A stretch of 63,112 nt of DNA, counting the filler, from Licmophora abbreviata (lineage: Eukaryota): the NCBI GenBank assembly GCA_900291995.1. It is 15 parts of 15 records of this genome, joined end to end, with 100 filler letters (N's around TTAATTAATTAA, not from the genome) between each part and the next. Parts side by side here need not be neighbours in the genome. Positions count along the whole stretch, not along the records: positions 26,584 to 35,215 come from OLMU01005801.1; positions 35,316 to 43,382 come from OLMU01005802.1; positions 43,483 to 50,176 come from OLMU01005803.1; 12 more parts are not named here. One strand, written 5' to 3'. Position 1 is the stretch's first letter; each line of letters opens with the position of its first letter. The notes beneath the pieces were generated by a model. That model searched no databases and was not told the DNA's origin. It saw nothing but the letters and a program-made list of their open reading frames with translations. The position numbers and the translations under genes were made by a program. Shown piece after piece: positions 14,723-49,196 of this stretch.

Positions 14723-14822
14723 NNNNNNNNNNNNNNNNNNNNNNNNNNNNNNNNNNNNNNNNNNNNTTAATTAATTAANNNNNNNNNNNNNNNNNNNNNN
14801 NNNNNNNNNNNNNNNNNNNNNN
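14723..14822. other. Artificial contig linker (44 N + TTAATTAATTAA + 44 N); also at 18301, 22670, 26484, 35216, 43383, 50177, 51527, 52628, 54842, 55967, 58069, 59460 and 61195
   Basis: The same 100-nt spacer, with stops in all six frames, occurs 14 times. Confidence 0.99.
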
Positions 14823-20700: not shown

Positions 20701-21214
20701 ATTGAGGACGGAAATGGGTGCGGCGCAGAGGAGCAGGAGCCAAGGCAGAGGAAGAAGGACCAGCTGGGAGCGAAAAGGAGGGAGCTGCTTTCCAAGGAGA
20801 CTTTCTGGTAGTCTTGGCGCCGTTGGCGGTCGGCTGACGAGGCACCGGCGACAGTCCAGATGTCATGCGAGTAGCAAGAGGTACCGGAGCAGTAGCAGTC
20901 TCGGGCACCGCCGCGGCCGTACCGATGGACGCCGCGCTCTCACGCGAAGGGAGATGGCCATTGACTGTCGTAGCGTCCTCACTCTCCGCCACAGGAGAGG
21001 CGAAGGGCGGTGAAGTCGTCTGAAACGAGTCAACCAGCCGAGACACGGAGGGACTCGTGCTGCTCCCCGTAGAGTCCCTACCAGAGTCTACGCGACGCTT
21101 TTTGACCGTGCTCCAGGGATTGAAACTGTTGAAAAAGCCCCACGCCGATCCTTCTGCCTCTTCTTCGTCCCGCGAGATTTCATCCGCTTTGCGTCTACGA
21201 GTGGGCTGTGACAT
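17731..21214 (-). CDS. FG-repeat nucleoporin with RanBP2-type zinc fingers (Nup153/Nup1-like), split by linker 18301-18400
   Basis: Zinc fingers WNCPFCFTYN...CYSC and WKCPKCDTLN...CKKC; many FSFG/FTFG/FG repeats; basic C-terminus GRRIVRARRP. The contig ends share GGCCGGTGC and merge in frame. Confidence 0.85.
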
Positions 21215-21592
21215 GGTAGACTACAGGAACGACACACAAGGAAACGGAGTGACAGAGCAATGAAAGAGATCCACAGAGCAAAGGTGATCGACATTGTTTG
21301 TGTGGCAGCGGTGCGCACTGACGCCAACGGTTTCAGGAATCTCGTCACGGACGGGGACCACCATCTCAGATAACACAGCCACACAGCCTTTCAGACAAAT
21401 GTGAGATTATATATGTACACTATTCGGATATTACATAAGTATATACTACGTGCGAACACCAAATTGTCCGTTGCTGTTCAAAGAGTCGTTGGCGCCAAAA
21501 CTCGCCTCCGCCAAAAATCACATCATCGCTTTTTCATCCGACACATCACACACACAAGCTTGTGTGTGTTTACACCAAAACCTCTGCCCAAG

Positions 21593-24500
21593 ATGGGATC
21601 TCATCCCAGCAAAGAACATCCCCCTGATGGCAATCGCCACCAGCTGCAGCTCCAGTCTCACCAGCTTCACCAGATTCATCAGCAGGCGCCTCAACGAAAA
21701 CCGCAGCAGCGCCGACTCACCCCTCACCCGTTTCGCCCACCCAATGGCACGTCTCGTCTGTACTCACACGCCGTCCGCGAGTCCAATAAGCCCACCACCA
21801 CGTCGGAGTTTCACCTCGTCTCTCCCCTCAGCGACCTCTCCGATCCCTCCTTTCGTCGTCTCGACTTGCCTACACAAACTCCGAACGAAACCACCGCCCG
21901 GCGGATTCTACTCTTGGAGAATGCACCGCCTCCTCCCATCTACCGACCGCCTGCTCTAGTAGAACGTGGTAGCAAGAAGAAAAGAAAGAGCAAGAAACTC
22001 AAAAAGGCCATCCAGCAGGCGTGGAAGGAGAGCAAACAGCGCGTTCGTCAACGGACAACGAATCGTCGCACTTCAGAGCTGCAGCCGAACGGTCGTGAAG
22101 AAAAAGCACAACGTCTCATGCATAAGCAACAGTTGGCGTTGCAGTCGAAGATACAAAAGAATCAGAAACATGGAAAGGAAGCGGATGGGTCGCCGAAGCG
22201 AGAAGGCAAAGTCAAAGTCTTGTTCAAGGGACTCGTCCACGACATCAAGGAGGGGGTGAGTCGTGCGCACGAGATTGATCGCGCAGCCAGGACAGCGCAT
22301 GAAACCAATGCAGCAAAGAAGAAAGCCGCAGTGCAGGACGCTGATCAAGGGAAGCAGGAGGCTTTGGAGGTGATGCACGCGAAACCAGTTCCGAGTAGAA
22401 GTCAGTTCAAGGCCGAGACGGCAGCCAAGTCGGACATGGCAGTTCGGGACATTAGTGCCATGCTCACGGCAACACCAACGTCCTATTTGTACGATGCAGA
22501 CGAACCGACGCCACTCCAGACGCTAGATGCGGCGTTTGCTGCCACGATGCACCAAGAAGACGAATATTTCAATCGACTGGCGCTGGTATTTGCCCAGTCT
22601 CCCTTTGTGAATCCGAGCAAGTATGCAAAAGCTGCGAGTCTGTTGAATGGCGACATGAAATCGTATGATNNNNNNNNNNNNNNNNNNNNNNNNNNNNNNN
22701 NNNNNNNNNNNNNTTAATTAATTAANNNNNNNNNNNNNNNNNNNNNNNNNNNNNNNNNNNNNNNNNNNNGAATATCAAGACATCTGCTGATCAGCCACCA
22801 CCCCAACCCATCATGACCTCGAGAATGCGACGCAGCTCGGTTGCCGTCGAGACCGTTCATAGTATGGCCGAGCCAAAGATGCAATGTCGTAAGTCCACTG
22901 TGTCCATGCAATCGACTCGAAGCGACGACGCAAAGACAATGGGAGCAACCGCGAATGTAGAACCCCGCCGTGTGTCCGAACCAGCTCCAACGTCGATTCC
23001 AGAGGTCAAGACGAACAAGACTGCTCCCGCGGTGGAAGCGCGTCGTGTCTCAGGAGAATCTAACAAGACGGCTACTACCTCCCGATCGATATTGCTTGCC
23101 GTTGTAACAAGCGCGGAGAAGCGTCGTATCTCCAAAGATCTTGAAGACTCCAAGTCCTCCCACAAGTTCCACGCAGGAGTAAACAAGAAGGACGAGAAAC
23201 TCGAGAAACAGGAGCTCATGGGAGCGTCTGCGAATCCCATCGAAACTAGCAGCGCAAACATCACGAAACACTCACAGAAGCATGAGATTGGCGATGGTTC
23301 CAGGTCTAATGGACAGAAGAAAGGCCCGAGACTTGCTGATATGCTTGCTGGTACAAAGGTACGAATTCCGTTCAAGCCAACTGCGATCGGCTCCAGTGTC
23401 TCAATTGGGAATGCACAAAGCTTTGACAGTGAAGATATGACGCTTCGCGTAACAGAGTCGGCCCCCAGTGTACTGGAAACAAGCGACTATCGAAGCATTG
23501 CGTTGTCAAAAGAGAACATGCACGCTCCCGACATGTCTAGACCAAGCAGTTTGGCGAATCTAAGCTCGACAAAGAATGATGACGCGCCGCCGATGAGTCC
23601 TGCCTACTCCATCAGCTCTGCCGTCAGTCAATCGCCTGCTGTGCCCTTGGTGTCGAACCAAGCGTGGTCGAACGCAGGGTTTCTCTTTTCTCCTAGCTAC
23701 ACTGGTGGTCAGCCTCATCTAATCCGTCATGCCGAACCTCCGAGGCGGGACTCACATGCTTATACCATTTCAACCGCCGAGTCGCGAAGCCGACTTTCTG
23801 TCGCTTCTTCGCGCTCTCTTCCTGCGTTTCACATTCCTGCCAGCCGTGCAGTTGACTCGCAAATGTTGATCAAAAACTCATATGATCAAGATGACTACAT
23901 GTCAGGAACGCATCGTATTTCCAAAGATAGCAAAGACGAGAAGCACGTTCGTTTCTCCGATATGAATGAAATGGCCGAAGGAAGTAGCCAGCCTGTCATC
24001 GAGACTATTGTTTATCCTGATATTGAGAGCAAATTGTCTGACTTGACGGATGCCACTAGTGTCGTCTCACATGATGTCGAAACATTGGCGAGTGTGCGCG
24101 AGGAGAATGAAGAAGAAACCGTTTCGATTGTGTCTGAGTCAACGGGCATCGTATCGGAGGGTCACTGGACGTACCGCGATGTCAATGGGACGCTCGTTGC
24201 CGCTACTCCAATGGTTGCCAATAAGAGAAGCACGAACGATGTTGGGCTGAGACTCGCGACCACTAAGTCTCCCATGCTTCGCTTTCAAGCAGCGAAGGCC
24301 AAGTTTGCAAAGCCTAACAAGAAAAAGAGTCCCGCTCGGAAGACACCCCCGAAGAAGTTCTCCAAGCGAAACTCAAGCGCTAGTGGAGTTGTCTCCAATC
24401 GCATTACCGAGATCAACGGACGGCTTCGAAGCGGTCGTCCGCTGGCGCATAAGAATCTCCGTCGTGACACCGGCGCAGAGGATGCTATCGCACCTCGTAA

Positions 24501-25464
24501 GCCTATTCTCGTCAACCCTTTGTTCCGGGAAGCAGAAACTAACCAGCGGTCCACAGTAGTTGAGGTTGAGACGAGTTTGTCAGAGCTGACCTTCAACGAA
24601 AATCGGAAATTGCCGCCAACCTCGTCGAACGCAGCAAAACTTTCCACAAAAATGTCTGTCCCGTTTGACAAGTCTACCATGATCGAGTCAGACCGACTAG
24701 CCGAGAAACAAAATCAGAATATTATGGAACCAAACACTGCCCCATTTGACGAGACGGTGAATATCGAACTGCAAGACAATGACGATGACTCAGTATCTGT
24801 TGCCTCGACCGAGAGTGAAGACATCTTTGATGCATTGATGAAGACGGTTGAGCAGCCTCTCCTAGGCCAGATGGATAACGAAAGTGACGGGGAGGAAGAA
24901 GATATTTTTGCAGCTGTCATGAACGGGCGCCCATCGGTCGGCTCATCAAGCACAAGTCTCTCTTCCATCCAAGGCCGAAAGTTGTCGCTGAGTGGAGTCT
25001 CCCGCCCCTCATCGATTGGTTACTCCGTGGATCACACTGTTAGTGTCATCTCTCACTCATCAACCGATGATGATGAGGAGGAGGCGTCTGAAGCACCCAG
25101 TGTCCGAACGATGGTACGTCGCCAAACGACGAGCACGACCCCAAGTCGTAGGTCGTTTCGGTCCTTTCTGTCCAAGGCCTCTTCGGTCCCCACTGTTGCC
25201 ACCGACAAGGAAAACAGTACGAGCTACCTACCGTTCGCGAACAAGAAGAATCATGTGAACCCTTGCGAGCAGCGACACCATGCGGCCACATCCCGAGGTT
25301 CGCTCTGCCTGTCCCCAGTCCAACGGACCCAATTACAAGCCCGGAAATGGCGAGATCTAGCTGCTGCGGCGAAGGAAAAGGACCGTCAGCAGCAAAAGAC
25401 GAAGCGAGGAGGAGGAGGTTTGCGCGTGCGCAACACCAATACCGGTGGTCAGTTTGCTCATTAA
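21593..25464 (+). CDS. Large disordered hypothetical protein, probably one gene spanning linker 22670-22769
   Basis: ORF from MGSHPSKEH (possible myristoylation) open to the gap, then an 883-aa Ser-rich ORF on the same strand ending ...LSPVQRTQLQARKWRDLAAAA.... The join is inferred. Confidence 0.6.
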
Positions 25465-30871: not shown

Positions 30872-32251
30872 TCAGGTCCCAGTCAACAAGTATTTGGCTC
30901 CCTCGACTCCCATCAATTCCACAAGCCGATCCAACCACTTATAAATTTCATAGTGACAAGAGGTTCCATGTGAAAAGTACGCACGTTCCTCAAAGGCCTC
31001 CCGACTCCGCCTTGCATCTCGCCTCGCACTGTAGCGTTCCCACGATCCCAAATAGTGATGGACGTGTAGGAGACTTTCATCGAATGCCACAAGCGGTTTG
31101 GGACACTCACGAAAGGGTCGATGCGCATTTTTCGGCTTGTCTTGTTGCAAACTCATTGGATCGAGTCGACTGACGTCCACAATCACCTTGCCCCATTTGG
31201 AGGGGTAGAAGGCACCCTTTTCAGCGTGTTGATGAAATCGGAGTGTCGATAACAATTGTTGTTGTTGCATGACAGTAGTACTCGCAGTAGTAGATCCAGT
31301 GCATGTTTCGTTTTCCAAGGCACCAAACAATAGGCGTGGTACGACATGGCAGGGTGGGAGTATCGCGATCTTTTGCGCCGCGTCGAGTGCCTGTCGGACC
31401 GTAGTGATGCGTTGTTTGTGTGATGATTGTTGCTGCAGGGTTGTCAAGCGCTGTCGAAGTCGTATTGCTCGAGCAGTCGTCGTATTCCACAATCGACCAT
31501 CTTCTGCTTCTCTTTTGACTTCCTCCCTCAATACTGCTTCCTCTTCGTTCGAATACCTGTTCAAGACAATGTACTCGTCCGTGTCGACAAAGGCCACCCA
31601 CGTTTGATTGTATACATCTCTCATATACTCTGCACACGTGGTAAGAAAGGCCCTCTGCCGATGAATATAATGGTGATTCTCATCACTGATATCGACTGGA
31701 ATTTCCCCAAACCTCTCCATAAAGTCTGAATGATTCCAGACTGTGTAATGGAATAATTCATGCTGCCGATATCTGTGTAAAATGTCAGCGGGATCTTGGG
31801 TGTTGCCGAGGTCGGCCGCGACAACGACGTGTCGTAGGGGCAAGACCATGTAGTGATAGGCAAGCCATTCGGCCAAGAGCGCATTGTCGTCTCGGACCAT
31901 CAAACAAGCAGCCATAGTGCTAGTAGTAGTGTTGTTGTATGTGGTGGTAGTACTGCTAGGAGCAGTACTTGTAGTAGTAGCATTCGAGGATGGTCTGAAT
32001 GAAGTAGATAAACTTTCCTTGGAGAGATGTTGTTGCAAGACGAATTGAGAAGCATCATTAGACTGCGCTACCAAAGGAAGCCAGGAAAACGATGATTCAA
32101 GTCTGTCGTTGTTGTAACGATTTACACTTTGGTACAAATTCAGATTCATATTTTCCACTGGAAGAAACATGACCCATCCAGACAGAAGGATCGCAAAGAC
32201 AAGGAACGACGGCATACTACGCAGGCGAGGAACAAATCTCCTCCTCCTCAT
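30872..32251 (-). CDS. GT-A glycosyltransferase, GT92/Glyco_tranf_2_4-like, type II membrane
   Basis: N-terminal TM, Thr-rich stem, ACLMVRDDNALLAEWLAYHY, DxD motif WVAFVDTDEYIV, KVIVD and HHYLGSWE. Confidence 0.82.
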   Translation of the reverse strand: MRRRRFVPRLRSMPSFLVFAILLSGWVMFLPVENMNLNLYQSVNRYNNDRLESSFSWLPLVAQSNDASQFVLQQHLSKESLSTSFRPSSNATTTSTAPSSTTTTYNNTTTSTMAACLMVRDDNALLAEWLAYHYMVLPLRHVVVAADLGNTQDPADILHRYRQHELFHYTVWNHSDFMERFGEIPVDISDENHHYIHRQRAFLTTCAEYMRDVYNQTWVAFVDTDEYIVLNRYSNEEEAVLREEVKREAEDGRLWNTTTARAIRLRQRLTTLQQQSSHKQRITTVRQALDAAQKIAILPPCHVVPRLLFGALENETCTGSTTASTTVMQQQQLLSTLRFHQHAEKGAFYPSKWGKVIVDVSRLDPMSLQQDKPKNAHRPFRECPKPLVAFDESLLHVHHYLGSWERYSARRDARRSREAFEERAYFSHGTSCHYEIYKWLDRLVELMGVEGAKYLLTGT

Positions 32252-32599
32252 TGTTGTTGTTGTTGTTGTTGCTTCTTCTCCAACAACAAAGGCCGCCGCT
32301 CTGCCATGATGGTGACTTGGTGGGTCGTTGATTTTGAATGATCGAAATAATGCGCCGGTATATCCGTGACTGATTGCAGCCCGTGACTACATCACGTGAC
32401 TCAAGGAAACCCGTGACTCACGCTCAATCACACAAAAAGCCAACGGCCAACCAGCAGCACCGCACCACAAGACAACAACCACAGACCACAACACAGCATC
32501 ACTTTAGTCTACAGTTCGTACCTGGTACTCTACGGTCGATTACAACCTTCTTTCTTCTCCATCCTGCCTCTCTGTCAAACGTAAAATTAGAAAATCCGT

Positions 32600-33456: not shown

Positions 33457-35834
33457 TTAGTGCGGCAAATACAGACATGCCACCATGGGATCGTGTCTGG
33501 AGGGTGGATTCACAAATTCCGAATTGACATGAATGTATTCTCCATCACCATCTGTGCAGAAGAACTCCGATACGAAAATGTGATCCCACGCTTGCGAGTT
33601 GCCTTGATCAATAACCGAGTATCGTTCGTTCTCTGGAATGTCCTCTGCCAAGTTCCTCAGCGCTGCCTTTTCTAAATTCAACAGCGGCGATACAAACTCA
33701 TTCTCATACATACTTCCAAGCACGATGACCTTGTTCGTATCCGTCACGATGCTGCCACTCCCACGCAACAAGGAGCGGACGCCGTTGCTCTGAGACAACC
33801 GAGCTTCGACGCCAGCATTGATGTCGTTGGACTCTTGCAGTTTCTCAATAGGCTGATTGACACCCGTTATGCTAGCAGAATTCCTCTTGTCTGTGAATTC
33901 GACACTTATGACATCAAAGACTGTGTTGGATGCGCGGTGTCGGAATAGGGCGGCGTAGGGTTCATCGAATGCCGACGCAAAGTTGAGCTGGCTTTGAATA
34001 CCATAGTCCTCCTTCAACTCGATTCGATCCTTGTTGTAGAGAATCGCCGAGTGAGGGCCGTCGTAAACATCACGGAGAATTTTGTATGTGCCGTCTCCGG
34101 GAGTGAACATTTGAATAGCGTAGATCAGCGAACCAATATCGTACGAGTATTCGAGTCCTTGTAAGGCTAGGACATCGGGAAAGCCCATGTTGAAGACAAT
34201 CTGCTCTCCAATCTTGCTATATTCGGTCGACCTCTCAAGGTTGTAAGTTCCAACCGATATTGCGTACGGGTCCGTGCTCTTGCAGCTAGTAGTGGTAGGT
34301 GTGAGTGGACTCGGTTCCACAAATCCAAAGTTTTCGGTGGGTAAAATCTCATAGTTACCATTCTGATCATCGACAACGCCAACGATATTACTCAAGGCAG
34401 CCCCAACACCCACAGCAGGAAAGGCTGCATCAAAGACAGCCTCTTCCATGACCTGGATACGTTCCGGGTTAAAGTCATGTGGACTGACATTGAGCGTACC
34501 GCGTTTACTCAGCCCGGTAGCCAACCGACCGTTGTTGTTAACTACAAACAATGTATCTCCGCCGGAAGTCGAAGAAATAGTCACTGGATCATCAATCTCC
34601 ACCAACATGCCCTCAAGACTTTCCCAGAACATCACTCCCGCCGACATGTCCTCGGTAGGAGGCCTGCGGCCTCCTTCGCCAATGATCACCGGGAAAGGAA
34701 GCGCATTGCTCCTCGAGACGATGACAACAGCATGGGCATCCAGATGAGTCGTCGGCTGATTGAATTCAATTTGGGGACCAGGAATTCTCTCCGAAACCAC
34801 CCCAGTAACCTCGACAAAGTCACCCACATGAGGTGTTGTGATGGAGCGGACTTCGATACCGTCCGATGTCGAATCATCCCCATCACCTTCAACGTCCTGA
34901 AAGAAGAATCGTTGTTCCACTGGTGACACCGCTGTCACGACACCAGGGACGCGAAAGACAGTCTGACCGATGTAGCGTGACGTGAGCTCGCTGAATGGCG
35001 GGTGAAGTGAGAAAGAAATGTAAGCACTAGCTCGAATCAAAAGAAGACATGCAAGCTCATCACGAGGCCTCCTCAACTTACTCTCCCTGAATAGCAAAAA
35101 TGCGATCCACGAGTTCGACTCCCGTGTCCAAGATTGCTGACTCCACCTCCAAGCCACACGATCGTGGAACCGGTTTACCGTTTGGTTTTGTGGTTGGCTC
35201 TGGCGTTGGTTTTTGNNNNNNNNNNNNNNNNNNNNNNNNNNNNNNNNNNNNNNNNNNNNTTAATTAATTAANNNNNNNNNNNNNNNNNNNNNNNNNNNNN
35301 NNNNNNNNNNNNNNNAGGTTTCAACGATGGTTTGGGTGTTGGCTCCGGAGTAGGTTTTAACGTGGGTTGGGGCGTTGGTTTTGGAGTGGGTTTAACCGTT
35401 GGCTGCAATGTTGGTTTCTGAGTAGGTTTTAACGGTGCAGGGGTAGGCTTTGGCGTTGGCTTGGGGGTTGGTTTCGAAGGAGGGGACACAGGCCCGTGTG
35501 GCTGGAATGTGGGCTTCGGTATGCATCAGATGAAATAAGCAGGTCGAGCACAGAGGACAAACGATTTGAAAAACGGGGTCAGTTTCGACTGCATAGGATG
35601 ATGCGGAATGTCAAGCTTCATTCTGCCACTGCTTCTCACCTTTGATGTCGGCTTGCCAGTGGTGCTCATAGACTGAAGCAGAGTCGCCCAATAAGCTTCA
35701 TCCTCCTCTGCGGAAGGGGGCGAAGGAGCAGCCGTTGTAGTTGCCACCGGATGATTCCAGAAAGTTTTTGCGTTTGCCTGATGGGACACTGCGAGGGCCA
35801 GGAGTACAAACAGAGTCGGTCGTTCTCGATACAT
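33457..35834 (-). CDS. Secreted PTPK-stalk plus ExeM/NucH-like OB/EEP protein, copy A (exons 35834-35640, 35513-35082 across the gap, 34990-33457)
   Basis: Signal peptide; KPTPKPT repeats; [65 protein letters not shown] and HVNSEF..SRHDP. Confidence 0.85.
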
Positions 35835-36533
35835 CTTCTCGCTTAAAGATCAGGGGGCATTTCGTCTTTCAGATTGTTGTTGAGAGCTCCTTGGCAGTGT
35901 GGTAGTGTGGCAATCAATGCGAGGATGCGTCGAGCTGGTATGAAAGTCAAGTCGAAGATGAAGAGATTCAACATATTTTGTGATCGCCAAATCCAAACTC
36001 AACGCCCACTGGAAATTCTCCTTAAATAAACCATCTATTCTGGCAGCCGTTGGGCGGAAATACCTCGATGACTGTTCTAAAAATCTAAAAGTCAATTTAT
36101 CGACATCCTCGCAGTTTGATAAATATATCGGAAAATGATACATCAAGCCACGAATTTTGTCCATTTTTGACAGCCAAGAGTCAGTCAAGTCAGAATAAGT
36201 ATCGCGGGGCGGGGGGCGTGTTCAGGCATCACCGACCGGCCCGAGGATTCTGACTCGACTTAAGTCGAGTCGAGTCGAGTCAGTTAGTTACATGCACCTG
36301 CTGGTACCCAAATCATGCCTCGTATGACAATCTGTGTGATTGAGTAGGGAATCGAATCTCAAAGAGATTGTCAAGCACAGAGCATCACCTTCGTTATATT
36401 ATTGTACATGTAAAACAGCAATCGCAACCCAAAGAGGGCATAGAATCTATTGACAGTCGGACCGACAGTACGTACTCCATCTCATCACTAGAGCAGTCGC
36501 TTCAATCCGTACGACACAATTACGCAAATTGAC

Positions 36534-38933
36534 TCACGAAAACTCAATGCAAGCCACCATGGGATCGAAAAATCGTTGATGAACTCCAGAAAACTCCACG
36601 TTCACATGGATGTATTCGGCAAAGGCACGCGGACAGAACTCCTCAGACATCAGAATATAGTCCCACGCCTGCGCATTGCCAGTATTGATGACCGAATAAC
36701 GCTCATAGCTAGGAATCTCAGTTGCCAAGTTCTTCAATCCAGCTCCTTCTAAGTTGAGGATAGGAGAGACCCATTCATTCTCGAAGAAACTACCAAGCAC
36801 AACGACACGGGTAGAATTGGTGACGATCTTGTTGTCTGAGTCGATTTCTCCCAAGATGAGTTCCCGTATACCATTACTCTCTAGGAGACGGTCATCGACG
36901 CCAGTATTTACATCATTGGCTTCTTGGAGCTCTTCGATGGGCTGTGCTACACCCGCAAGGGCAGCATCAAGTGATGTACCAGGACTGAACACGGTATTAA
37001 TGAGATCGAATTGCTCGCCTGTTGGCCCGAACATGAACCGGGCGGCGTAGGGTTTCGAACGGGCAAAGAAAGTGCTAAGTTGGCCTTGAACTTTGTAGTC
37101 CTCTGTTGCGTAGACAGTCCATGGATTGTAGAGAACCGCAAGAACGGGATCATTCAAGTCTTGAAGAATTCTGTACGTTTGTGGACCATCAAGGGCTTCA
37201 ACCGAATCCACCAAGGCTTCAAGGTCGACACCAGAACAGAGTTGTAGTGCAACAATGTCCGGATGTCGCATATTGAATACGAGGTGCGTCGCAAGAGCTT
37301 CATAGTCTCGTGAATACGCAATATTGTACGTAGCAACCCGCAGAGAGTGCTCTCCCTTCTCGCAGCTTGACATGGACGGCTCGATCGCACTCCGCTCCAC
37401 GACACCAAAATACTCAGTAGGAATAATTGAATAGCGCCCATCAAAATGACCGACAACGCCAACAATATTGTCGAGCTTGGTGCCAACGCTAACGTCTGGA
37501 AACTGCAATTTGAAGATGTCCTCTTGATCAATGAGAATGGTCTCTGGGTTGAAGTCATCAGGAGATAAGCTAATCGTGCCTCGCTCGCTGATCCCGGTGG
37601 CGAAAGCTCCACCATCACTGACCACAGTGATCACCCTGCGGTCGAACTTGAAGGGTCGAGTTTTGTCTACAGAAATGGGACTGTCAATCTCCACATACAT
37701 GCCTTCGAGACTTTCCCAGAATTCAATGCCAGCTTGCATATTCATCGTGGGCGGCAAGAGCCCATGCGCACCGATGAGGACCGGCGGAGGAACATCGTTT
37801 CCACTGGAGGTGATGGCGATTGAACCTGCATCCGTTGCAGTAGTAATACGAGTACTCGGCTGCTGAAAAGGTCGGTTCGGAAACTCCAAGACCTCTTCGA
37901 CGATACCGTTCACCGCCACAATATCACCGACATTCACGGGCGGAGTACTATTGGTGAAGACCTGGATTCCGTCTGAAGTAGCTGGATCACCATCACCCCC
38001 ATCAGGGTCTTGCATGAAAAACCTATCACCATTCACGGCTGTAACGACACCAGGCACGCGCAGGACCAGCTGACCGGCAAACGGAGATGTAAGCTCACTG
38101 TCGAGATGTCAAGGCAAGAGTCGTTAGTAGGGCTACGTCAGCCATTTACATGCATACAAGGAGGCACGGCACCCGAAACAAGATCTAAAACGTACAGTCC
38201 CTGAATTTCATAGATTCGATTCGCAAGCACAAGAAGATGCTCAATCGGATCTTCGAGATGCAAGTAGCACACCGAGGTGGGTCTTGGTGTAGGCTTCTGT
38301 GTCGGTTTCAGCGTCGGTTTCGGCGTTGGCTTCGGTGTCGGTTTCGGCGTTGGCTTCTGTGTTGGTTTCGATGTTGGCTTCTGTGTTGGCTTCTGGGTCG
38401 GTTTTGGCGTTGGCTTCGGCGTTGGTTTCGGTGTCGGTTTTGGCGTAGGTTTCTGTGTTGGCTTCAATGATGGTTCCGGTGTCGGTTTTGGCGTTGGTTT
38501 TGGTGTTGGTTTTGGTGTTGGCTTCGGTGTCGGCTTCGGCGTTGGGATCTGTGTTGGCTTGGATGTTGGTTCCGGTGTCGGTTTTGGCGTTGGCTTCGGC
38601 GTCGGCTTCGGTGTTGGTTGCGGTGTCGGTTTTGGCGTCGGCTTCCGTGTCGGCTTCGGAGTCGGCTTCGGCGTTGGTTTGGGAGTCTTCAAAAATGAGA
38701 AAACATCAGCGAGAACGATGGGTGTTAGTATCATAGAGATCAAGAGCAAAGGCGACGCACAGGGGTCCTTCAGTGCAAGCACGCACCATAGGAGTAGGTT
38801 TTGGCGTCGGCACGGTGCCTAGCCGTAGATACCCATCCGAAGGCACAGCAGCAGCTGCGCTGGCCAACAGGGATCCCGACTGCCTCAACAATGCACAGCA
38901 CGCCAGAAGGAGTGAAAAGGAACTACTCATCAT
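36534..38933 (-). CDS. Secreted PTPK-stalk plus ExeM/NucH-like OB/EEP protein, copy B (exons 38933-38787, 38686-38196, 38097-36534)
   Basis: Signal peptide; roughly 135-aa (PTPK/PTQK)n tract; [24 protein letters not shown]; same downstream motifs as copy A. Confidence 0.87.
38276..38686 (-). repeat. 12-nt-unit coding tandem repeat encoding (PTPK/PTQK)n
   Basis: Degenerate CCN ACN CCN AAR units; related tracts at 35316-35480, 41260-41531 and 44820-44916. Confidence 0.95.
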
Positions 38934-39449
38934 GTTCAATCAGGCTCCAATGAACTCGGCAACCGGACAAGCCCAGGTTCAGAACCATCTTTACCTGAGT
39001 TTGTCGTCGATCGCCAAATCGTCCGTTTGACATTCAACGCATGATCCTGGAGCATTAGGATTATTAATAAACGAATAGGTCATTAACGAATGGGTCGCTT
39101 GTTTCGAGGATAGTGATAAGATTTGAAATCCCACTGGGCGTGTTTCACTCCCAGGTCTCTCTCTCTTTGAACGACTCGAGACACCACACTCTCTCTACCT
39201 TCTTACAACGAGAACATGCCAAATAGTCCTCTACTCAGGTCTACCGTCGACAAGCGTAAACATCATCACCAACCATACATCGACTTATTTTATGATAATT
39301 AATAAACAAAAGAATGCAAATCTCAAGATACGTAAGCATGGTCAAGACTGATACTCAAGAAGACGTATGTACCACACAGACGGATCAGGACGTCGTCGGG
39401 GCCTTCACAGCCACTGAAGATTCATTACTGCGAATGCGCAAAGAACAGC

Positions 39450-42282
39450 CTAGGTCAACTGAACGCAGGCAACCATGGGATCGAAAGAACTGCTGGGATT
39501 CAGGAACTCAGAGTTCACATGAATGTATTCGCCATATGTCCCAGGACAGAATTCGCTCGAGACCAGAATGTGGTCCCAGGCCTGAGAATTGCCTCTGTCT
39601 ATCACAGAGTATCTCTCAAAAGAGCGGATTTCAGTAGCTAAATTCTTGAGGCCGGCACCTTCGAGGTTGAGAATAGGCGAGATCCACTCATTTTCGAACA
39701 TGCTCCCCATGACAATGAGACTTTCGGGATCCTCGACGATCGCGTTTGCAACATCGCCTCCCAAGATAAGCTCACGCACCCCGTTACTCTCAAGGAGACG
39801 AGAATTGACACCACCGTTGATGTCGTTGGCTTCTTGAAGCTTTTCAAAAGGTTGGTTGATCCCAAACGATGAAGCGCTTCCGTCCCTGTCCGTGAAAATT
39901 ACATTGATCGCATCGAAGGTCTTCCCTCGTGGCTTGAATTTAAAGACCCCAACCAAAGGTGGGGGCTCATTGAGAAAGAAAGTAGCCTGGACGGCCGCTG
40001 GTATCAATCTCTTCTCAATAAACTCCATGGTCCAGGTGTTGTAGAGAAAAGCCAATTGGTCGCTCCTATCGGCCTCGTAGTTTGTCGGCATACCGGCACC
40101 ATCGGGAAGATTATCGATTGCAGCCAAAAGTTGATTGATATCGAAGCTGCCTTGCGCACCCTGCAAAGCGATCAAGTCAGGGGATCCCATATTTTCCACA
40201 ATGTGTTTGGCAGTTTCCGTGTAGTCCAACGACTCATCAATGTTGTATGTGCCTACCAACATGGTGAATTCACTAAATCCATTTGAACAAGTCGTAGAGG
40301 AAGGCTCCAATGTGCTTGGCGAGACAACACCAAAACTCTGCACAGGGACAATCTCGTTGGGCCGACGACTCGATGCGTCGTCAACAATCCCAACAATATT
40401 GCTGAATTTAGTTCCAACGCCGACTTCGGGAAACGAAAAGAGAAAAACGTTCTCCCCATCAATGTATATTCTCTCGGGATTCCAGTCATGCGGACTCACG
40501 TTCAGTGTTCCACGATCGCTTAGGCCGGTCGCATAATGACCCTCGTCGGCAACAACATTGATGGACGTAGATGTGATTGCCGAGGAGATCGCCATAGGTT
40601 TGTTTATTTCAACAAGCATACCTTCCAAGCTTTCCCAGAACATAATACCCGCCATCAAGCTCTGCGTTGGAGGGCTTCTTCCGTGTACGCCAATCAAAAC
40701 TGGCTCCGGAAGCGAATTACCGCGTGAGTTGATAATGATCAATTCACTTGAAACCTCAATTCTTGTAGTGGACATCTGCTGAAGGATGGAGGAAGGGTTA
40801 TCAGAAACCCATTCGGTAACCAGGCCCCTCATTATGGTAACAAGATCACCGACTTGCACCGAAACCTCGACCCCGCCGAACATGCCGGTCGGTCGATCGT
40901 CGATATCGTCGTTAGACGGGTAGTAAACTTCAATGCCGTCCGACGTCCTGTCGTTCATATCCCCTCCATCCGGTTCTTGCATAATGAATCTAACTCTCGA
41001 AACAGCTGTGACGACACCAGGAACGCGAAAAACCATTTGATTCACAAACGACGAAGTTAATTCACTGTGGCAAAGGTATGAAGTGAAAGCATATAATGCG
41101 TGAGTTTGACAAAAAAGACACCTGATGCAACCGGACCGCAATCAGAGTAGTATCTGTGACAAGAAATGTACTTACTCTCCCTGAATTTCGTAAATACGGT
41201 TGACTAGGTCAATCTGCGGTTCTTCAATTGCAGGATGAATATCCAGATGGCAGACTGTAGTAGGCTTCGGCGTCGGCTTGGGAACAGGCTTTGGCGTTGG
41301 CTTGGGAGTCGGTTCAAAGGTGGGGTGTAGGGTTGGCTCGGGCGTAGGTGTAGGTGTCGGCTTGGGAGTGGGTTTTGGCGTCGGTTTTCCTGTTGGAAAA
41401 GACGTAGGTCGTGCGGTTGGCTTGAGCGTTGGGAGTCTCGTAGGATGCGGGGTCGGTTTTTGGGAAGGCTTCGGCGTAGGACCAGGCGTTGGCCTTGGGC
41501 TTGGGGCGCGGGTCGGTCTGGCAGTTGTTGGCTGTACGACAAGAAAGAGAGAAGAAACAAAGATCAGTCAGTCTCAAGTCGTCCTCACCGAATACAGAGC
41601 AAGCACTGCTGTTGAATCAGAGTTCACTCACCTTTGCAGTCTCGGGCTTACTCGAGGGTTGTAATGAAGGCTTTTGGTTCAGAAGGAGACAAGGATCAGA
41701 CTATATGAGTACCACTATTTTCAAGAAAAAAGACATGTAGCATGTAGCTTCGACACTCACCTCTGATGTTGGGACCGGCTGACAGAATGAAGACACATCA
41801 AGGCGGAAGAAGTTAGACGACGGGACGGACGGAAGAGCAAGCGACTACGGCCTCGATGGTCAAACTCACCTTTGGAGTCGGCTGCATGGCGGAAACGAGT
41901 TTGCGTATACAGAGAACACATAGTTAGAGAAGGAAAGCGAAAGATTTTTTACCACTGCTCCAGAGACCAAACATAGAAAACCGAGCCACGGGCGCAAGAT
42001 CAGTCCAGATTCTCTTTTCTCAGTTCGTCGCAGCGGCTACAGGTACAAAAAAGAGGATGGCTCCACATACTGGGTCGAAGCCGAGATTGTCATTCACGGT
42101 GACAGCGTTTCTCGACCTTCACGTGGTCGTCTACGTACCTTGGGTGTCGGCTGTGGCGCCACGGGTCCAGCGCGGACTCCTCCTGACGGAGGCGGTTCAG
42201 TCGGGACGTCCCAAAAGTCCTTTGCGTTCGCATTCCCTACAATACAGGCCACTGCCAGCAGTGTGGAAACACCGAACCTCAT
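39450..42282 (-). CDS. Secreted PTPK-stalk plus ExeM/NucH-like OB/EEP protein, copy C (exons 42282-42139, 41881-41870, 41778-41761, 41670-41632, 41531-41176, 41064-39450)
   Basis: Signal peptide [20 protein letters not shown]; micro-exons PTPK, PVPTSE and [29 protein letters not shown]; full OB/EEP module. Confidence 0.85.
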
Positions 42283-42836
42283 GACTCGTCTCTGCTCGCT
42301 GTATCTTTCTGTATCTCTCTCTCTCTCTCTCTCTCTGTATCTGTCTCAGGACCGACAACAACGGACAACTGGTGTTGCGGCCAGGCAAAGAGCACCGCGT
42401 CGCTGAAAACTGTGGCGGCGAAATTCCGGCGATTTCTGTGAGTGACGGCGCGCTTCGGACCTCGCTGATACATGTGTGATCGGCGCGCGTACTGACATTT
42501 TATATTTATGTAAAGGGGACTAAGTTATTTACTGATTTCGAGCTGGGGGATGAACAAAGTGTACTTTGCACCAGAGAGAGCCTGTCGGCACGCCGCCACC
42601 GTTCTTGAGTGATATGCTCTTTCTCACGAGCTCACAGCATAGCACTAAATTGGGAAGGAATCGATCGGCATTGGTCTAAGGCATGCCACACCTTGTGCTG
42701 CTCAGGAAGCGCAATGGGGCGGCTAGCTACAGTACGCAGATATCGTCAAACTTGAAATACAGGTAAACATCAACAACTACTCCGAGTACACTGTATGCTA
42801 CATGCTACGCGGTCGCCCGATGTTGAACTCCGGTTT

Positions 42837-45380
42837 TCATGTATACTCTTCAAAAGGGAAGTTGATACAACCAATCATGGGATCAAAACGGGAAACTTGC
42901 TCGAAAAAGTCAACGTTCACATGTATATACTCGCCAAATGTACCTGGACACAGGTCCCTTGAGACCAGGATGTGGTCCCATGCCTGCGAGATACCTTCTC
43001 GAATCACCGAATACCGTTCATTATCAGGAATGTCATCGACCAGGTTCTTCAATCCAGCGCGTTCCAAGTTAAGAAGTGGAGATACCCATTCATTCTCATA
43101 GAATCCCCCTAACACAATAACACTATCCGGATTCTCAACGATGGCATCTGTGGTGCCTCCAAGGATAAGCTCTCGAACTCCATTGCTCTCGAGGAAACGT
43201 TCATTAAGACCAGCATTGATCTCATCGAAGTCTTGCAGTTCCTCAAATGGCTGATTGACACCGAACGATGAAGCAGCTCCACTCTTGGTCGTGAATCTAA
43301 CATTGATGAGATCAAATTGTTTCTTTGCCGGAAGGAACGTAAAAAGAGCCACCTGAGGCACTTGTCCTCTGAAAAAAAGAATNNNNNNNNNNNNNNNNNN
43401 NNNNNNNNNNNNNNNNNNNNNNNNNNTTAATTAATTAANNNNNNNNNNNNNNNNNNNNNNNNNNNNNNNNNNNNNNNNNNNNATTGTTTCTTTGCCGGAA
43501 GGAACGTAAAAAGAGCCACCTGAGGCACTTGTCCTCTGAAAAAAGAATCCACCTGTACTTGCGGACCTTTGTCCATATCGAGCTGTATACGCCAGAAGTT
43601 GTACATGATACCAAAATTACGGTTGCTCCCTCTCAGGATCTTGTAAGCATCTTGGCCGTTGGACTGCCAAGACGGTACATTCCTTATCGCGTCCAGCAGA
43701 AGAGGAAACTCGAACGATGCGCCCAACCCTTGAAACGCCACAATGTCGGGAAATCCCAAGTTGTTCACAACATGGGCGGCAATTGTGTCGTAGTCCAGAG
43801 ATCCAGCGACATTGTAGGTAGCAACTGGCATGGATACTTGCGAGCCTGCACAGGTCGAGCTTGACTCTTGTAGGTCACTTGGCTCGGAAATTCCAAACTG
43901 TATGACAGGAAGAACCTCATAGGGCTCACGTCGCATCACGTCATCAACAACGCCGACGATACTGCTGAACTTGGTCCCAACGTTTGTCTTCGGAAAGAAG
44001 AACCCAAAGACGTCTTCCTCTCCAACGATAATCCTTTCAGGATGCCAGTCGTGAGGACTAACGTTGAGCGTTCCACGCACACTCAGCCCAGTCGCAGTCA
44101 GGCCACTGTCGGGAACCACGTAGATGTTTTCACTGGATGTTGTAGGAGAAATAGCAATCGGATCCTTGATCTCGACAAGCATCCCCTGCAAGCTTTCCCA
44201 GAACCGGATCCCAGCCTCCATACCCTGAGTCGGTGGGCGTCGCCCCTGTACACCAATGACAATTGGGTCCGGAAGAGCGAAGCTACGAGATTCGATAATG
44301 ATTTGATCGGGCGTCGCCACGAGATATGTTGTGGACTGGGCGAAGGGTGGGGTGCCGAGCCATTCATCCACCACAGCTTGTACAACGGTGATTCTGTCGC
44401 CGACTAGCAAGAACACGACAGAACCACTATCCCTTCGCGTACCTAGAGCACGAAAGGTGGTGGGACCAGCATTCTCTGGATCAATGTTGAAGGCTTCAAT
44501 GCCGTCTGACGTTGCATCATTCTTGTCGCCTCCGTCAGGGTCTTGTAAGAAGAATCTGTCATCGAGTGTACCCGCTGCTGTCACAACGGCGGGGACGTTG
44601 AAGACTGTCTGGCCCGCGAAGCGCGACTTGAGTCCACTGTAGTCGTTAAAAGATCATGTAAAGTAGGAAGTGAGTCTCATGGTTCCAGTGGGAGTTGGCG
44701 ACATGCTTGAAAACAAAATGAGAAACAAAAAACTTACTCTCCCTGAATGTCAAAGATTCGATTGACGAGTGGCCCCGGCGCATCAAGCATGTCACCTACT
44801 TCACCACAGTAGTACGGGTAGGATGGTTTTGGAGTCGGTTTTCCCATTCCGGTAGGCCTAGGCGTTGGCTTCGGCAAAGGGGGGCTCGTTGGTGGTTCCG
44901 TTGGAGGAAACTTCGGCTGGAGGCAAACATGACGCAAGCACAAGATCAAACACAGTTGATTGTTAGCCCACGAGTCAGAACTAAGCATTTCGTCATAGAC
45001 GTTTCTAGATCATTGTTAACTCACCTTGGGAGTCGGCTGAGTAATGAAGAAGAGAGCGGGCATGTGAAACAAACAAATGAGCGAGTGAGCAGGGCGAACG
45101 CAAGTGAACTTATCATGTCATCGATTCGGCTGTGGACTCACAACAGGTGTTGGCTGTAAGATACGTCAGAGAGGAAACAAAAATAGGAATGTGAGCACAG
45201 GTTTTCAGTTACACGATCGCACATGCATCCTCAGCGACGTACATGTGTCGTTGGGGGCGGCGGAACTGTGCCAGCACGAGGGCCCGTCGGAGTTTGGGTC
45301 GACGTATCCCAGAATTCCTTTCCACTCGCGCGTCCCATAAGCAGAACCACCGCGATCAATGCAGAAGTCGAAAATCTCAT
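42837..45380 (-). CDS. Secreted PTPK-stalk plus ExeM/NucH-like OB/EEP protein, copy D (exons 45380-45243, 45153-45142, 45036-45025, 44916-44738, 44636-42837 across overlapping contigs)
   Basis: Signal peptide MRFSTSALIAVVLLMGRASG; micro-exons PTPV and PTPK; IFDIQG|DGLKSRFAGQ. The contigs flanking linker 43383-43482 overlap by about 66 nt. Confidence 0.85.
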
Positions 45381-46974: not shown

Positions 46975-48606
46975 TTACCAAACCAGCAGTGTTCTGAACG
47001 ATTGGACCAAGGCCATACGGCCGTTCACGAACACCTTCATCAAGCGTCTAATCGGTGCCAGTGTCATCGTGGAGCGCCGCAAAGAAGACGAAGTGGCTCT
47101 CACCGCTTCCACCTTTTCGATATGCTGAGGTTGTGCTTTCGGAAATAGCACGGATAATCCCACTGGACTCGTAAACATGAGCGCATGATCATGTCCCACT
47201 CCCTCAACCACATGACTCTTGTGATTTGTATCGTCAATACCCACCAGTCGCAAGGATTCCATGAATCTCCAGTGTCGATCCCATCGTGAATGGCCCTGCA
47301 GCTCGTCGGCACAAGTTGTGCCCAAATCATGAGACTGACACCACTGATTCTTTCCCGTAACGTTGCATCTATCCAAACCTCCAGCCAAATAGGAAACGTG
47401 ACGTTGTCCGTATCGTTGGATGATATCTGAAACGCCCTTTTGTTGCAGTACTTGATCCTTGTAAGGAGATGGAAAGGCCGTTTGACTCGTACTGTCCTGT
47501 GCCAGCCCAAACGTCCATTCATTGTAGGCTGGGCACTCTTGTTGCCACGAAGGCGGTACTTGCCACGTCCCATTGACTCTTCGCTCCGGCGTCAAGTACG
47601 TCCACGAGCTGGGATTCGCAATGACGGAGGAAATGGCGGGATACCCATTCCACTCCAGCGACGTTAGCAACGACCATCGCTGAGTAAACTGGCCGCCTAC
47701 CGAGTGCCCGACCACAACGATGCGGCGAAGATTGGGAAAGCGAGCGTGACCGCTTGTACTGCCGGCAATAGTTGGCCCAATCATCAAGGCCCCCACCAGC
47801 CGATCCATAGCGTCAAACGATGTAAAATTCTCATATCCCTTGGCGGCAGCCCCAAATCTCCACATTCCATGACCCACACCACCAAATTGCAAAATAGGCG
47901 GTACTGCTGCGTCTCCTTCAGATGGTCCCACTACTCCATGACTGCTTTCGACGAGTTCCACCACCCCATCCGAAGCAGTGAGGAATCTGGGTGCCAGCAC
48001 CAGTATCGACTCGACATTGCCATAGTGACGTTGTAAATCTCGTGCAACCATGAGGGGACAGTAGTAATCATCTGCATTCCGCGCACCGCCGTGCACAACC
48101 ACAACCGCAAGTTCAATAGCAAAATGGAAAGAGTCGTTGTCGAACCCAGTATCGTCGTAAGTACCAGTAGTGATACTTCCATGAGAGGAGTAGTATGGCA
48201 GCAAGACGGTCTCAGTACTGTTCTGATTGGAAACCGAGATGGGCAGTCCGTGTAATGGATATAGCGATGCCGAACTGGGACATAGCGTGTACCTGGGCAG
48301 CACTTGCAAGAGAGGATCAGGCGATCGACTGTTCGTCGCCTGACAACGGCCATGCTCTACACAGACGTATCCCTTGGGACATCCAGTACGGCCATCAGGA
48401 CAACACGTGGCATTCAGACTTCCCATGTTGCTGGATATGCAACCGGAAGTAGAACTAGTAGTGTGGGCGGTGACACAGCAGGTGTTACCGTCCGGACAAA
48501 CGCCCCCTCCGTCTTTCAATGTGCATTGCTCCAATCCAAGGACTAACCTCCTCAAAACTAGAAATAATGTAAGCATCCAGAACCAAACAACAAGAGTTGA
48601 CCCCAT
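46975..48606 (-). CDS. Secreted granulin-like domain plus alpha/beta-hydrolase
   Basis: Signal peptide; CPDGNTCC...CCPDGRTGCPKGYVC; VVHGGARNADDY, GHSVGGQFTQRW (nucleophile elbow), ANPSSW and VEGVGHD. Confidence 0.8.
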   Translation of the reverse strand: MGSTLVVWFWMLTLFLVLRRLVLGLEQCTLKDGGGVCPDGNTCCVTAHTTSSTSGCISSNMGSLNATCCPDGRTGCPKGYVCVEHGRCQATNSRSPDPLLQVLPRYTLCPSSASLYPLHGLPISVSNQNSTETVLLPYYSSHGSITTGTYDDTGFDNDSFHFAIELAVVVVHGGARNADDYYCPLMVARDLQRHYGNVESILVLAPRFLTASDGVVELVESSHGVVGPSEGDAAVPPILQFGGVGHGMWRFGAAAKGYENFTSFDAMDRLVGALMIGPTIAGSTSGHARFPNLRRIVVVGHSVGGQFTQRWSLLTSLEWNGYPAISSVIANPSSWTYLTPERRVNGTWQVPPSWQQECPAYNEWTFGLAQDSTSQTAFPSPYKDQVLQQKGVSDIIQRYGQRHVSYLAGGLDRCNVTGKNQWCQSHDLGTTCADELQGHSRWDRHWRFMESLRLVGIDDTNHKSHVVEGVGHDHALMFTSPVGLSVLFPKAQPQHIEKVEAVRATSSSLRRSTMTLAPIRRLMKVFVNGRMALVQSFRTLLVW

Positions 48607-49196
48607 CCTAACAACATTCGTTTTCAAAAGAAGGGAAGGCAGTCCACAGTGGTCACTCTTGAGGCTTGTGTGATGCTCTTCGTCGCACGTATCATGTGAC
48701 TATTCATCTGAAATCGTCGTGCTTTCGTTCGTCATCTTGAGTTTTGCGACTTGAACTCCACTCACTAACTCATTCGGTTCGAGTCACGTTCTAAAGTACC
48801 GGCAAGTCAGGTCACGGATGCGACAATGTCTGACCACGCTCCTCAGCCACGTCAGCAAAAACGGAGTTGACAGATTTGCGCGGGAAATTGTGCGAGCGCG
48901 CCAGGCATTGTCCGTTCAAATTTCAAAAAATTCCCGAAAGCATCTTCAGTCTCGTAGCATCGATCCGGCGTTGGCCGCCACATCACAACTTTGTAAACTT
49001 TTGTGGTCGCGCCTGGAAGGTCGAAACGAACGCACGACGGAGCATCATCCAAAGAGATTTTGAATTCATCGGCTCCGACTGACACCATCGCAAGGGATGA
49101 CAACAACAATAACAAGTTGACACCAAAGCGCACGATAGATAGATAGATAGAAAGTGACTCTACTTGCTGGTTGAACAGTCACGTTCAGAAAGAGCC

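Follow-up and report, generated by a model that had tools for sequence, protein, structure and literature searches.

What purpose is served by a nuclease fold that has lost most of its catalytic residues, is apparently secreted by a diatom and is encoded four times in a row? The question is raised by positions 33457–45380 of a 63,112-nucleotide (nt) stretch of the Licmophora abbreviata assembly GCA_900291995.1, in which 15 records are joined end to end with filler between them; this whole stretch is referred to here as the window. Located there on the minus strand are four co-oriented paralogous genes, copies A–D, and a tblastn search with copy C finds only these four copies within the window. 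A first-pass annotation, made from the DNA alone, had read them as intact genes for secreted pseudo-nucleases on Pro/Thr/Lys stalks. Our favoured explanation, to which we give a probability of about 0.65, is that A–D form a tandem family of old secreted, non-catalytic paralogs that bind or scaffold; the joint claim that the proteins are non-catalytic, secreted and functional is the safer one, and we regard it as quite probable.

Homology, fold and the former catalytic centre

The best family match of the encoded proteins is the ExeM/NucH family of NCBIfam, NF033681, with E values of 6.3e-22, 6.6e-19 and 6.9e-9 (78.1, 68.2 and 35.1 bits) for copies A, B and C, the 300-bit cut-off not being reached; the first piece of copy D has no match to it and the second scores 14.6 bits. 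A Pfam scan of all five window pieces reported 0 families at E ≤ 1. The EEP domain is undetected by Pfam in all seven proteins with the inactivated motif pattern described below (A–D and three metagenome proteins, together referred to here as the dead clade) and detected in the three active relatives tested. Searching with copy B retrieved 70 proteins, the closest of which include the metagenome protein P0001 (45% identity), and bacterial matches reach down to E 1.9e-42 over 99% of the query, mostly with PF03372 or PF19580; P0002 is 29% identical over 99% of copy B. A family profile (A3, 45 rows) aligns with the whole 563 residues of chain 9sf9_A at E 1.4e-161, and copy C alone matches this chain at E 2.4e-6. 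Entries 9SF8 and 9SF9 are SpnA of Streptococcus pyogenes, the solved part comprising OB3, OB4 and the nuclease domain, according to the available text of the SpnA report (PMC13601614). Judged by these alignments, A–D are homologous end to end to the OB3–OB4–nuclease module of the SpnA/ExeM/NucH extracellular nucleases, in keeping with the ExeM/NucH-type homology claimed in the first-pass annotation.

The same annotation had proposed an OB-fold-like region followed by an EEP-like domain, and both are recovered in an AF2 model of the last exon of copy C (predicted local distance difference test score 92.5, predicted template-modelling score 0.91). At the start of the model is the first OB-fold domain (model residues 1–110; 40728–41057, minus strand), which carries GVVTAV, FIMQE and TSDGI, is homologous to SpnA OB3 by profile, and matches the OB domains of MCM9 (N-terminal), SSB and AsnRS with VIA Z-scores of 8.2–8.9, values just above the tool's stated background though consistent in the kind of match. 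The motifs IxxIQG, GVVTAV, FFMQD and TSDGI are found in all four copies. After the first OB domain comes a middle β domain with the motif FWESLEGM (residues 111–260; 40278–40727, minus strand), which aligns to the segment called OB4 in the SpnA paper and is the most conserved domain within the dead clade (pairwise identity 0.55). The EEP-fold domain, a four-layer α/β sandwich, completes the model (residues 261–535; 39453–40277, minus strand); residues 262–535 have this fold, and over residues 266–535 the match to 3l1w has a VIA Z-score of 24.1 (root mean square deviation 2.6, 220 residues aligned), followed by TDP2 (23.1), ExoIII (21.6) and DNase1L3 (21.3). The top EEP match of the model in Foldseek has an E value of 4.6e-11, and ESM Atlas matches comprise only generic EEP and ExeM/NucH clusters, some of them fungal.

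The functional residues of SpnA are E592, which binds Mg, H716, D767 and D810, which act in catalysis, and R696 and N769, which contact the substrate (PMC13601614). Placed by residue counting along the profile alignment with an offset of 289, residues E592, R696, H716, D767, N769 and D810 correspond to model columns 300, 365, 387, 452, 454 and 495, and in the alignment they are the E of LIEVQ, the R of VRKS, the H of ANH, the D and N of GDFN and the D of LDN. All six columns are 100% conserved in 14 active relatives, the G-D-x-N columns being counted over the 13 rows that have a residue there (13/13).

Five of these six residues are replaced in every one of the four copies. In the order A, B, C, D, the Glu of motif LQE (E592; Glu in 14/14 active relatives) is Gly, a gap (Leu in the MAFFT alignment), Gly and Gly; the His of the N-H motif (H716; His in 14/14) is Glu, Val, Ile and Arg; D767 is Ser, Ser, Ser and Gly; N769 is Tyr, Phe, Phe and Tyr; and the Arg of SRKPL (R696; Arg in 14/14) is Asp, Ser, Pro and Gln. 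Only D495, the equivalent of D810, is Asp in all four, and in copy C the domain accordingly reads G300, P365, V386-I387, S452, F454 and F525 with D495 kept. At the level of motifs, LQE has become LQG, LQL, LQG and FQG; NHF has become VEF, TVF, VIF and VRF; and GDxNE has become GSMYE, GSFFE, GSMFE and GGFYE. The loss of QE, NHF and GDxNE from every copy, as first annotated, is thus seen again in alignments with active relatives. In addition, the GGNIR loop is shortened or lost in the copies, while the Asn of motif I (TYN) and the Asp of 'WDH' are retained in all four.

The last motif is a different matter. It reads SRHDP, RFFDP, SSFDP and SRFDP in A–D and had been counted as lost throughout. 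S-R-H-D is the commonest form of this motif among relatives (pattern NLENHDNEDHRHD in 54 of 223 aligned rows), so the SRHDP of copy A is intact; the claimed loss holds for B, C and D, where Phe takes the place of His. The predicted metal (E521, D822) and phosphate (H642, N699, H823) residues of ExeM (PMC6085458) fall in the same motifs as the functional residues of SpnA, and at the position of H823 there is His in copy A and in the metagenome protein P0103, and Phe in B, C and D.

Relatives and selection

Searched with the family profile, 1.84 billion representatives yielded 3511 matches at E ≤ 0.001, and motif states were scored on 223 rows, comprising 219 database proteins and the four copies. 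Among those 219, the dead pattern occurs only in P0001, P0072 and P0103, which are nameless metagenome proteins, all fragments, with 0 Pfam families at E ≤ 0.01. By motif score P0211 and P0069 are partly degenerate and P0065 and P0067 heavily so, which may reflect alignment errors. Metagenome scans with copy C and P0001 gave pattern matches but no stretch encoding a relative. Four sequencing runs compared with 35316–43382 yielded short contigs at low depth and no splice joint; contigs from runs labelled marine metagenome match pieces of B, C and D with 0–5 differences.

To place the family, an IQ-TREE 'quick' tree was built from 53 rows (the 45 nearest, P0073, P0103, P0071 and five outgroups) picked from a 212-row FastTree. 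The seven dead proteins form a clade with a Shimodaira–Hasegawa-like approximate likelihood-ratio test (SH-aLRT) value of 100, and the stem leading to it is long, at 1.33 changes per column. The sister of this clade is P0073 (KAL7567265.1; SH-aLRT 94) of the diatom Epithemia clementina, a near-intact relative that retains all but one of the catalytic residues scored. Within the clade, copy A has P0103 as its partner (SH-aLRT 88); C, D, P0001 and P0072 belong to a group that is not resolved further (SH-aLRT 84). As the metagenome proteins are nested among the window paralogs, the duplications probably predate a species split.

The named tree members surrounding these proteins are cyanobacterial (Plectonema, Xenococcaceae), and named proteobacterial relatives (Halovulum and an unclassified Pseudomonadota metagenome-assembled genome) branch nearer the base; Sphaerospermopsis P0075, a top profile match, lies outside the 53-row tree. 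This pattern, on a tree rooted only on chosen outgroups, is what would be expected had the gene passed from bacteria to diatoms and later lost its catalytic function in one lineage.

Inserted into the EEP domain of P0073, between the GGNIR and (V)H motifs, are approximately 250 residues (about 500–750) that include a poly-Gln run and a 'INEIEPNPAGDD' segment resembling a lamin-tail domain, although Pfam reports PF03372 only. The insertion could be real or a gene-model artefact.

The copies are 48–52% identical in protein, with non-synonymous divergence (dN) of 0.40–0.48 and synonymous divergence (dS) above 2.4 or undefined. By the Nei–Gojobori method (NG86), dN/dS among copies is 0.08–0.18 where defined, values that are upper-bound-like owing to saturation; maximum-likelihood dS of 2.5–21 shows saturation only. 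The ratio is below the value near 1 that the first-pass annotation had named, in combination with a lack of expression, as contrary to its view. The stretch shared by B and C that it had singled out is identical at 22 of 23 residues, and its codon differences are synonymous in 14 cases and non-synonymous in one. Gene conversion was considered for this stretch and rejected, as 17 of its 69 bases differ and the best 30-codon window between any two copies reaches a nucleotide identity of 0.70–0.78. That the last exons are open in every copy despite saturated synonymous sites makes the array more than a product of chance, and the comparisons together show long-term purifying selection on the whole protein, in so far as it can be read from aligned codons.

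Within the dead clade (seven rows) mean column identity is 0.46 at 11 catalytic columns and 0.53 in the shell of ±3, compared with 0.47 elsewhere in the EEP domain; the shell is thus no better conserved than the remainder (Mann–Whitney p 0.37). The corresponding values in the enzymes are 0.97, 0.79 and 0.56. Measured by this column conservation, the old active site is free of its former constraint, whereas the fold persists: no dead-clade member holds the residue at 33 positions with at least 90% conservation in active relatives, and 64 positions are invariant in the dead clade and also reach that level in the enzymes. Relaxed conservation at the former site speaks against the idea that new binding takes place in a remodelled pocket. 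A pocket of this sort, for example a sugar site, had been suggested by the aromatic residues found in place of N454 and H525; it was given less weight, as neither site nor shell is better conserved than the rest.

Standing out instead is a nearby helix–loop at residues 461–480 of the copy C model (39618–39677, minus strand), with a column pairwise identity of 0.61 in the dead clade against 0.38 in active relatives. Being more conserved here than in the enzymes, it is a candidate new interface. Between dead and active proteins, identity is 0.39, 0.44 and 0.32 in the OB, middle and EEP domains, compared with 0.68–0.70 among active proteins.

Gene models, the Pro/Thr/Lys region and neighbouring genes

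Gene models for A–D were built from strong donor sites and open frames, and every intron is GT-AG. In each gene a signal-peptide exon is followed by one or more exons for a region rich in Pro, Thr and Lys (P/T/K) and by a last exon of 510–543 codons encoding the OB–OB–dead EEP part, open in all four copies, so that the description of four co-oriented paralogs with intact open reading frames (ORFs) stands. A phase-2 intron occupies one common position in A–D, between IQG and (E/G)L(T/K)S, and the uninterrupted 'EIQGRELTSPF' of the metagenome relative P0001 supports this splice.

Copy A (35834–33457; on the minus strand, like all the exons that follow) has its signal peptide in exon 1 (35834–35640), stalk exons at 35501–35316 and 35215–35082, and a last exon, stop included, at 34990–33457 with motif states G, V-E, S and Y and the last His kept. 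Copy B (38933–36534; 733 residues) consists of a signal-peptide exon (38933–38787), a long PTPK stalk exon (38686–38196) and the OB–OB–dead EEP exon (38097–36534). Copy C (42282–39450; 727 residues) has a signal-peptide exon (42282–42139), three predicted micro-exons (41881–41870, 12 nt; 41778–41761, 18 nt; 41670–41632, 39 nt), a stalk exon (41531–41176) and the OB–OB–dead EEP exon (41064–39450), with all exon borders AG/GT and an open frame. In copy D (45380–42837; about 657 residues) the signal-peptide exon (45380–45243) is followed by two predicted micro-exons of 12 nt each (45153–45142 and 45036–45025), a short stalk exon (44916–44738) and the OB–OB–dead EEP exon (44636–43483 and 43382–42837), which is interrupted only by a linker at 43383–43482.

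Such linkers occur 14 times in the window, each comprising 44 N, TTAATTAATTAA and 44 N (for example, 14723–14822), and two lie inside the array: the one in copy D and one that splits the stalk of copy A (35216–35315). Both flanks of the copy D linker carry the same approximately 60 nt, with a one-T difference in a T run (6 versus 7), and their translations overlap by 20 residues, so the copy D gene is continuous and the gap is an assembly artefact.

The predicted micro-exons of C and D are all in phase 0, have the form CAG/CCN ACN CCN AAG/GTGAGT (exon borders marked by strokes) and encode a PTPK-like unit each. They might serve as cassette exons by which the length of the stalk is set; if real, they would offer an unusual means of assembling a low-complexity stalk and varying it.

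Several features lie upstream of the coding regions. The upstream regions of 440 nt have no k-mer of at least 8 common to three or four copies. Directly upstream of the copy C start codon, in leader or promoter, is a (TC)n/(GA)n microsatellite with a 10-nt repeat (42295–42347). In the leader of copy A (35843–35860, minus strand) a short upstream ORF of ATG, four codons and TAA comes just before the main ATG at 35834.

The N-termini of A–D are signal-peptide-like, with 11-residue Kyte–Doolittle means of 2.6–2.7, and the hydrophobic start ends in ANA in A and C and ASG in D, with Lys next; a Lys, rather than an aromatic residue, after the likely cleavage site points, we presume, to the secretory route and not to the plastid. 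The predicted mature N-terminus is conserved as K-(T/D/E)-F-W-(N/D) in three of the copies, B being the exception. Beyond the signal peptide the A–D sequences show no clear membrane span, and none ends in a hydrophobic tail; there is one borderline hydrophobic 19-mer within the folded part of copy A, and likewise of copy D.

Between the signal peptide and the OB motifs is the P/T/K-rich region, 107–206 residues long with an isoelectric point (pI) of 9.3–10.6. It is longest in copy B (206 residues: 63 Pro, 37 Thr, 30 Lys; net charge +28), short in copy D and therefore very unequal among the copies. Its Lys residues are regular, about every fourth residue, and in the copy B stalk exon an imperfect tandem repeat of 12 nt, or four codons (P-T-P-K), runs for 31.4 copies (38304–38680, minus strand; Tandem Repeats Finder, period 12, 74% matches). 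In its composition and repeats the region resembles the mucin-like or hydroxyproline-rich stalks of secreted proteins, and it is probably O-glycosylated. A signal peptide and a P/T/K region in each copy are thus as first described; 'displayed on a stalk' needs rewording, as the region is present but N-terminal and there is no membrane or glycosylphosphatidylinositol (GPI) anchor. With neither anchor, a tether role would require the basic stalk itself to hold onto the wall.

Each copy has four conserved Cys, compared with none in most bacterial relatives, and A, C and D keep an N-V-S sequon, both in keeping with secretion. The globular part is strongly acidic, with a net charge of −32 to −42. 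Active nucleases are equally acidic (median pI 4.05 over 207 regions); charge was tried as a sign of DNA binding and set aside as not discriminating between dead and active proteins.

The neighbours of the array in the window are eukaryotic and include a cyclic-nucleotide-binding protein and kinases, a DnaJ, a lipase, an acyltransferase, a GT92/GT2_4-like glycosyltransferase beside copy A, Dim1 beside copy D and a secreted hydrolase. Introns and eukaryotic neighbours rule out bacterial contamination. The best named matches of the Dim1 exon are diatoms (Cyclotella cryptica, 75%; Skeletonema, 73%; Nitzschia inconspicua, 77% over 76% of the query), in agreement with a diatom host that is not close to any of the genomes named among these matches.

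Directly downstream of copy A (30872–32386, minus strand) is a gene whose product carries a membrane anchor at its N-terminus and weakly matches Glyco_tranf_2_4 (E 1.6e-6) and Glyco_transf_92 (E 2.4e-5), a candidate Golgi-type glycosyltransferase adjoining genes for putatively glycosylated proteins. The gene at 46975–48699 (minus strand) encodes a protein that looks secreted; its N-terminal part is Cys-rich and resembles granulin (E 7e-4), another part resembles an α/β-hydrolase (E 2e-4), and both matches are under Pfam cut-offs. Two very long ORFs have no Pfam match (18353–21220, minus strand, 955 residues; 22726–25464, plus strand, 912 residues), the former lying within the most GC-rich part of the window (0.55–0.56 at 18–22 kb).

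What the proteins may do, and known systems

In the favoured explanation, the globular part would descend from an SpnA/ExeM/NucH-type extracellular nuclease of bacterial origin, and the proteins would not cut nucleic acid but bind or scaffold outside the cell. The binding surface would be formed by the conserved OB and middle domains together with the newly conserved helix 461–480, and the likeliest ligand would be extracellular nucleic acid or another anionic polymer, with the polycationic, probably O-glycosylated P/T/K region keeping the acidic head at an anionic cell surface, be it silica or extracellular polymeric substances (EPS). The OB domains are required for DNA binding in SpnA (PMC13601614), and the OB-like and EEP domains are both essential for ExeM activity (PMC6085458); retention of the ancestral substrate-binding OB module therefore favours nucleic acid or another anionic polymer. 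Nucleic acid in particular is a tentative assignment, with the odds somewhat against it.

Several observations weigh against this explanation. With the equivalents of the substrate-binding residues R696 and N769 lost, DNA binding, if there is any, would depend on the OB domains alone. The acidic globular head disfavours binding of a polyanion, although active nucleases are as acidic. All three domains, not just the EEP domain, have diverged fast, which may mean that the ancestral ligand has been given up. The last His and its partner Asp persist in copy A and P0103. Finally, a catalytic paralog working with these proteins may lie elsewhere in the genome, the search for copies having covered the window.

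A more specific version of the favoured explanation is conceivable, though we think it unlikely: that in a diatom lineage a cyanobacterial-type surface nuclease was transferred, inactivated and multiplied into wall-held capture proteins that hold extracellular DNA (eDNA) or a phosphate-rich polymer undegraded. The polycationic, glycosylated tail would sit in the silica or EPS wall, the OB–OB–dead EEP head would hold the polymer, and stalk length would be tunable by alternative use of the 12- to 39-nt in-frame micro-exons. If so, eDNA could be kept at the surface for matrix building, for phosphorus scavenging by other enzymes or for control of bacterial neighbours.

Of the rival explanations, the one that survives best, with less in its favour than even the capture proposal, makes A–D structural proteins of the wall or frustule. 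Here the Lys/Pro/Thr repeat would be the working part, acting in silica or matrix association or in cross-linking, with the dead head as a stable module or spacer. The stalks suit such a role in being basic, with Lys about every fourth residue, in being built from a 12-nt tandem repeat and in varying greatly in length. In silaffins it is lysine-rich repeats that promote association with biosilica, and the Amphora cell-wall protein AC3362 has a repetitive region rich in Pro and Lys (both in the available text of PMC4220933); PTS-rich regions are typical of diatom extracellular matrix proteins and expected to be O-glycosylated (10.1101/2023.03.06.531300). However, clear purifying selection and conservation across species sit in the globular head, the stalk of copy D is short, the metagenome relatives are fragments that are uninformative on stalks, and no silica-protein hallmark was seen, though none was specifically looked for.

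That the proteins are still enzymes is improbable. The catalytic residues would have migrated, or the proteins would catalyse a different reaction, for example as a metal-independent or differently liganded phosphoesterase. EEP fold matches do span nucleases, sphingomyelinases, inositol phosphatases and a 2',3'-cyclic phosphatase; A–D all retain the motif-I Asn and the WDH Asp, and copy A and P0103 the final His; and three clade-specific invariant polar residues, D382, N456 and E510, lie near the old site. Yet Gly, Val/Thr, Ser/Gly or aromatic residues stand where five of the six SpnA residues would be, the GGNIR loop is shorter or missing, and some columns of the old site vary within the clade (E, V, I, R, V, R and V at H387; R365 and R334 also variable). 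In a working active site the shell would be better conserved than the rest of the domain, and here it is not.

We place lower again the idea that A–D are decoys or partner-binding proteins aimed at other organisms or at secreted proteins, which might hold a secreted enzyme or titrate a bacterial factor of the phycosphere. Its model is SpnA, which does more than cut DNA: it binds components of complement C5b67 and brings secreted IdeS back to the bacterial surface (PMC13601614). The greater conservation of surface helix 461–480 in the dead clade (0.61 versus 0.38) would agree with a partner interface, as would the expansion to four divergent paralogs with diversified recognition. Against this, dN/dS gives no sign of diversifying selection, read at saturated synonymous sites, and the case is one of analogy.

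Least of all are A–D likely to be relics, decaying copies of a transferred nuclease gene, a notion to which the lost catalytic residues and the failure of Pfam to recognise the domain lend themselves but which is scarcely compatible with four last exons open despite saturated dS, a dN/dS of 0.18 or less, canonical splice sites kept in all copies including the common phase-2 intron, 64 clade-invariant positions also at least 90% conserved in active relatives, single-paralog counterparts in other sequence sets and a confident AF2 model.

Pseudoenzymes, to which A–D conform in their homology to an enzyme, missing catalytic motifs and purifying selection, are a known kind of protein; those derived from secreted nucleases are little known. 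In the full-text literature searched, a scope that excludes most subscription journals, neither a dead, expanded eukaryotic branch of SpnA/ExeM/NucH nor any secreted-nuclease pseudoenzyme of diatoms or of this family was found described. If A–D bind extracellular DNA or a surface polymer, they would be a new component of the diatom cell surface and phycosphere. The locus would also be a clean case of horizontal transfer, loss of catalysis, duplication and retention, with a near-intact comparator in Epithemia. Were they merely minor wall components with no specific ligand, they would be an annotated example of enzyme-to-scaffold evolution and no more.

Among characterized proteins, SpnA shares with A–D the order OB, OB, EEP and an extracellular, surface-associated location, in A–D a predicted one. 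It differs in being a Mg-dependent nuclease with a C-terminal LPXTG anchor and two more OB domains, whereas A–D have an N-terminal P/T/K region, lack an anchor and keep only the equivalent of D810. ExeM and NucH have the IQG, GVVTA, FxxQD, TSDGI and FWESLEGM motifs in common with A–D, which lack an LTD domain and a GlyGly-CTERM tail. The equivalents of ExeM E521, H642 and N699 are replaced in all four copies; as for the D822/H823 pair, B, C and D have lost it, and copy A reads R-H, like many active relatives.

Trailins resemble A–D as secreted diatom proteins that combine low-complexity Pro/Thr-rich sequence with a folded domain derived from bacteria, but their domains are of the Choice-of-Anchor A kind, and the word 'nuclease' is absent from the available text of their description (10.1101/2023.03.06.531300). 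The host of A–D, unlike the Trailin setting, may not be a raphid pennate.

Closest to the dead clade is Epithemia P0073, likewise a diatom protein with a signal-peptide-like start and the 'QPFEKLQE..D(V/I)NG' insert. It differs in keeping LQE, GGNIR, (V)H, GDMNE, LDH and SDHDP, in being matched by PF03372, in its EEP insertion of approximately 250 residues and in having no PTPK stalk.

Re-use of the EEP fold in binding has a precedent in Crc and Cimex nitrophorin, which are non-catalytic binders. Both share the fold with copy C (4jg3 and 1ntf; Z-scores of 18.9 and 14.3). Unlike A–D, they belong to unrelated lineages and are single-domain proteins with neither OB domain nor stalk, Crc being intracellular and nitrophorin salivary.

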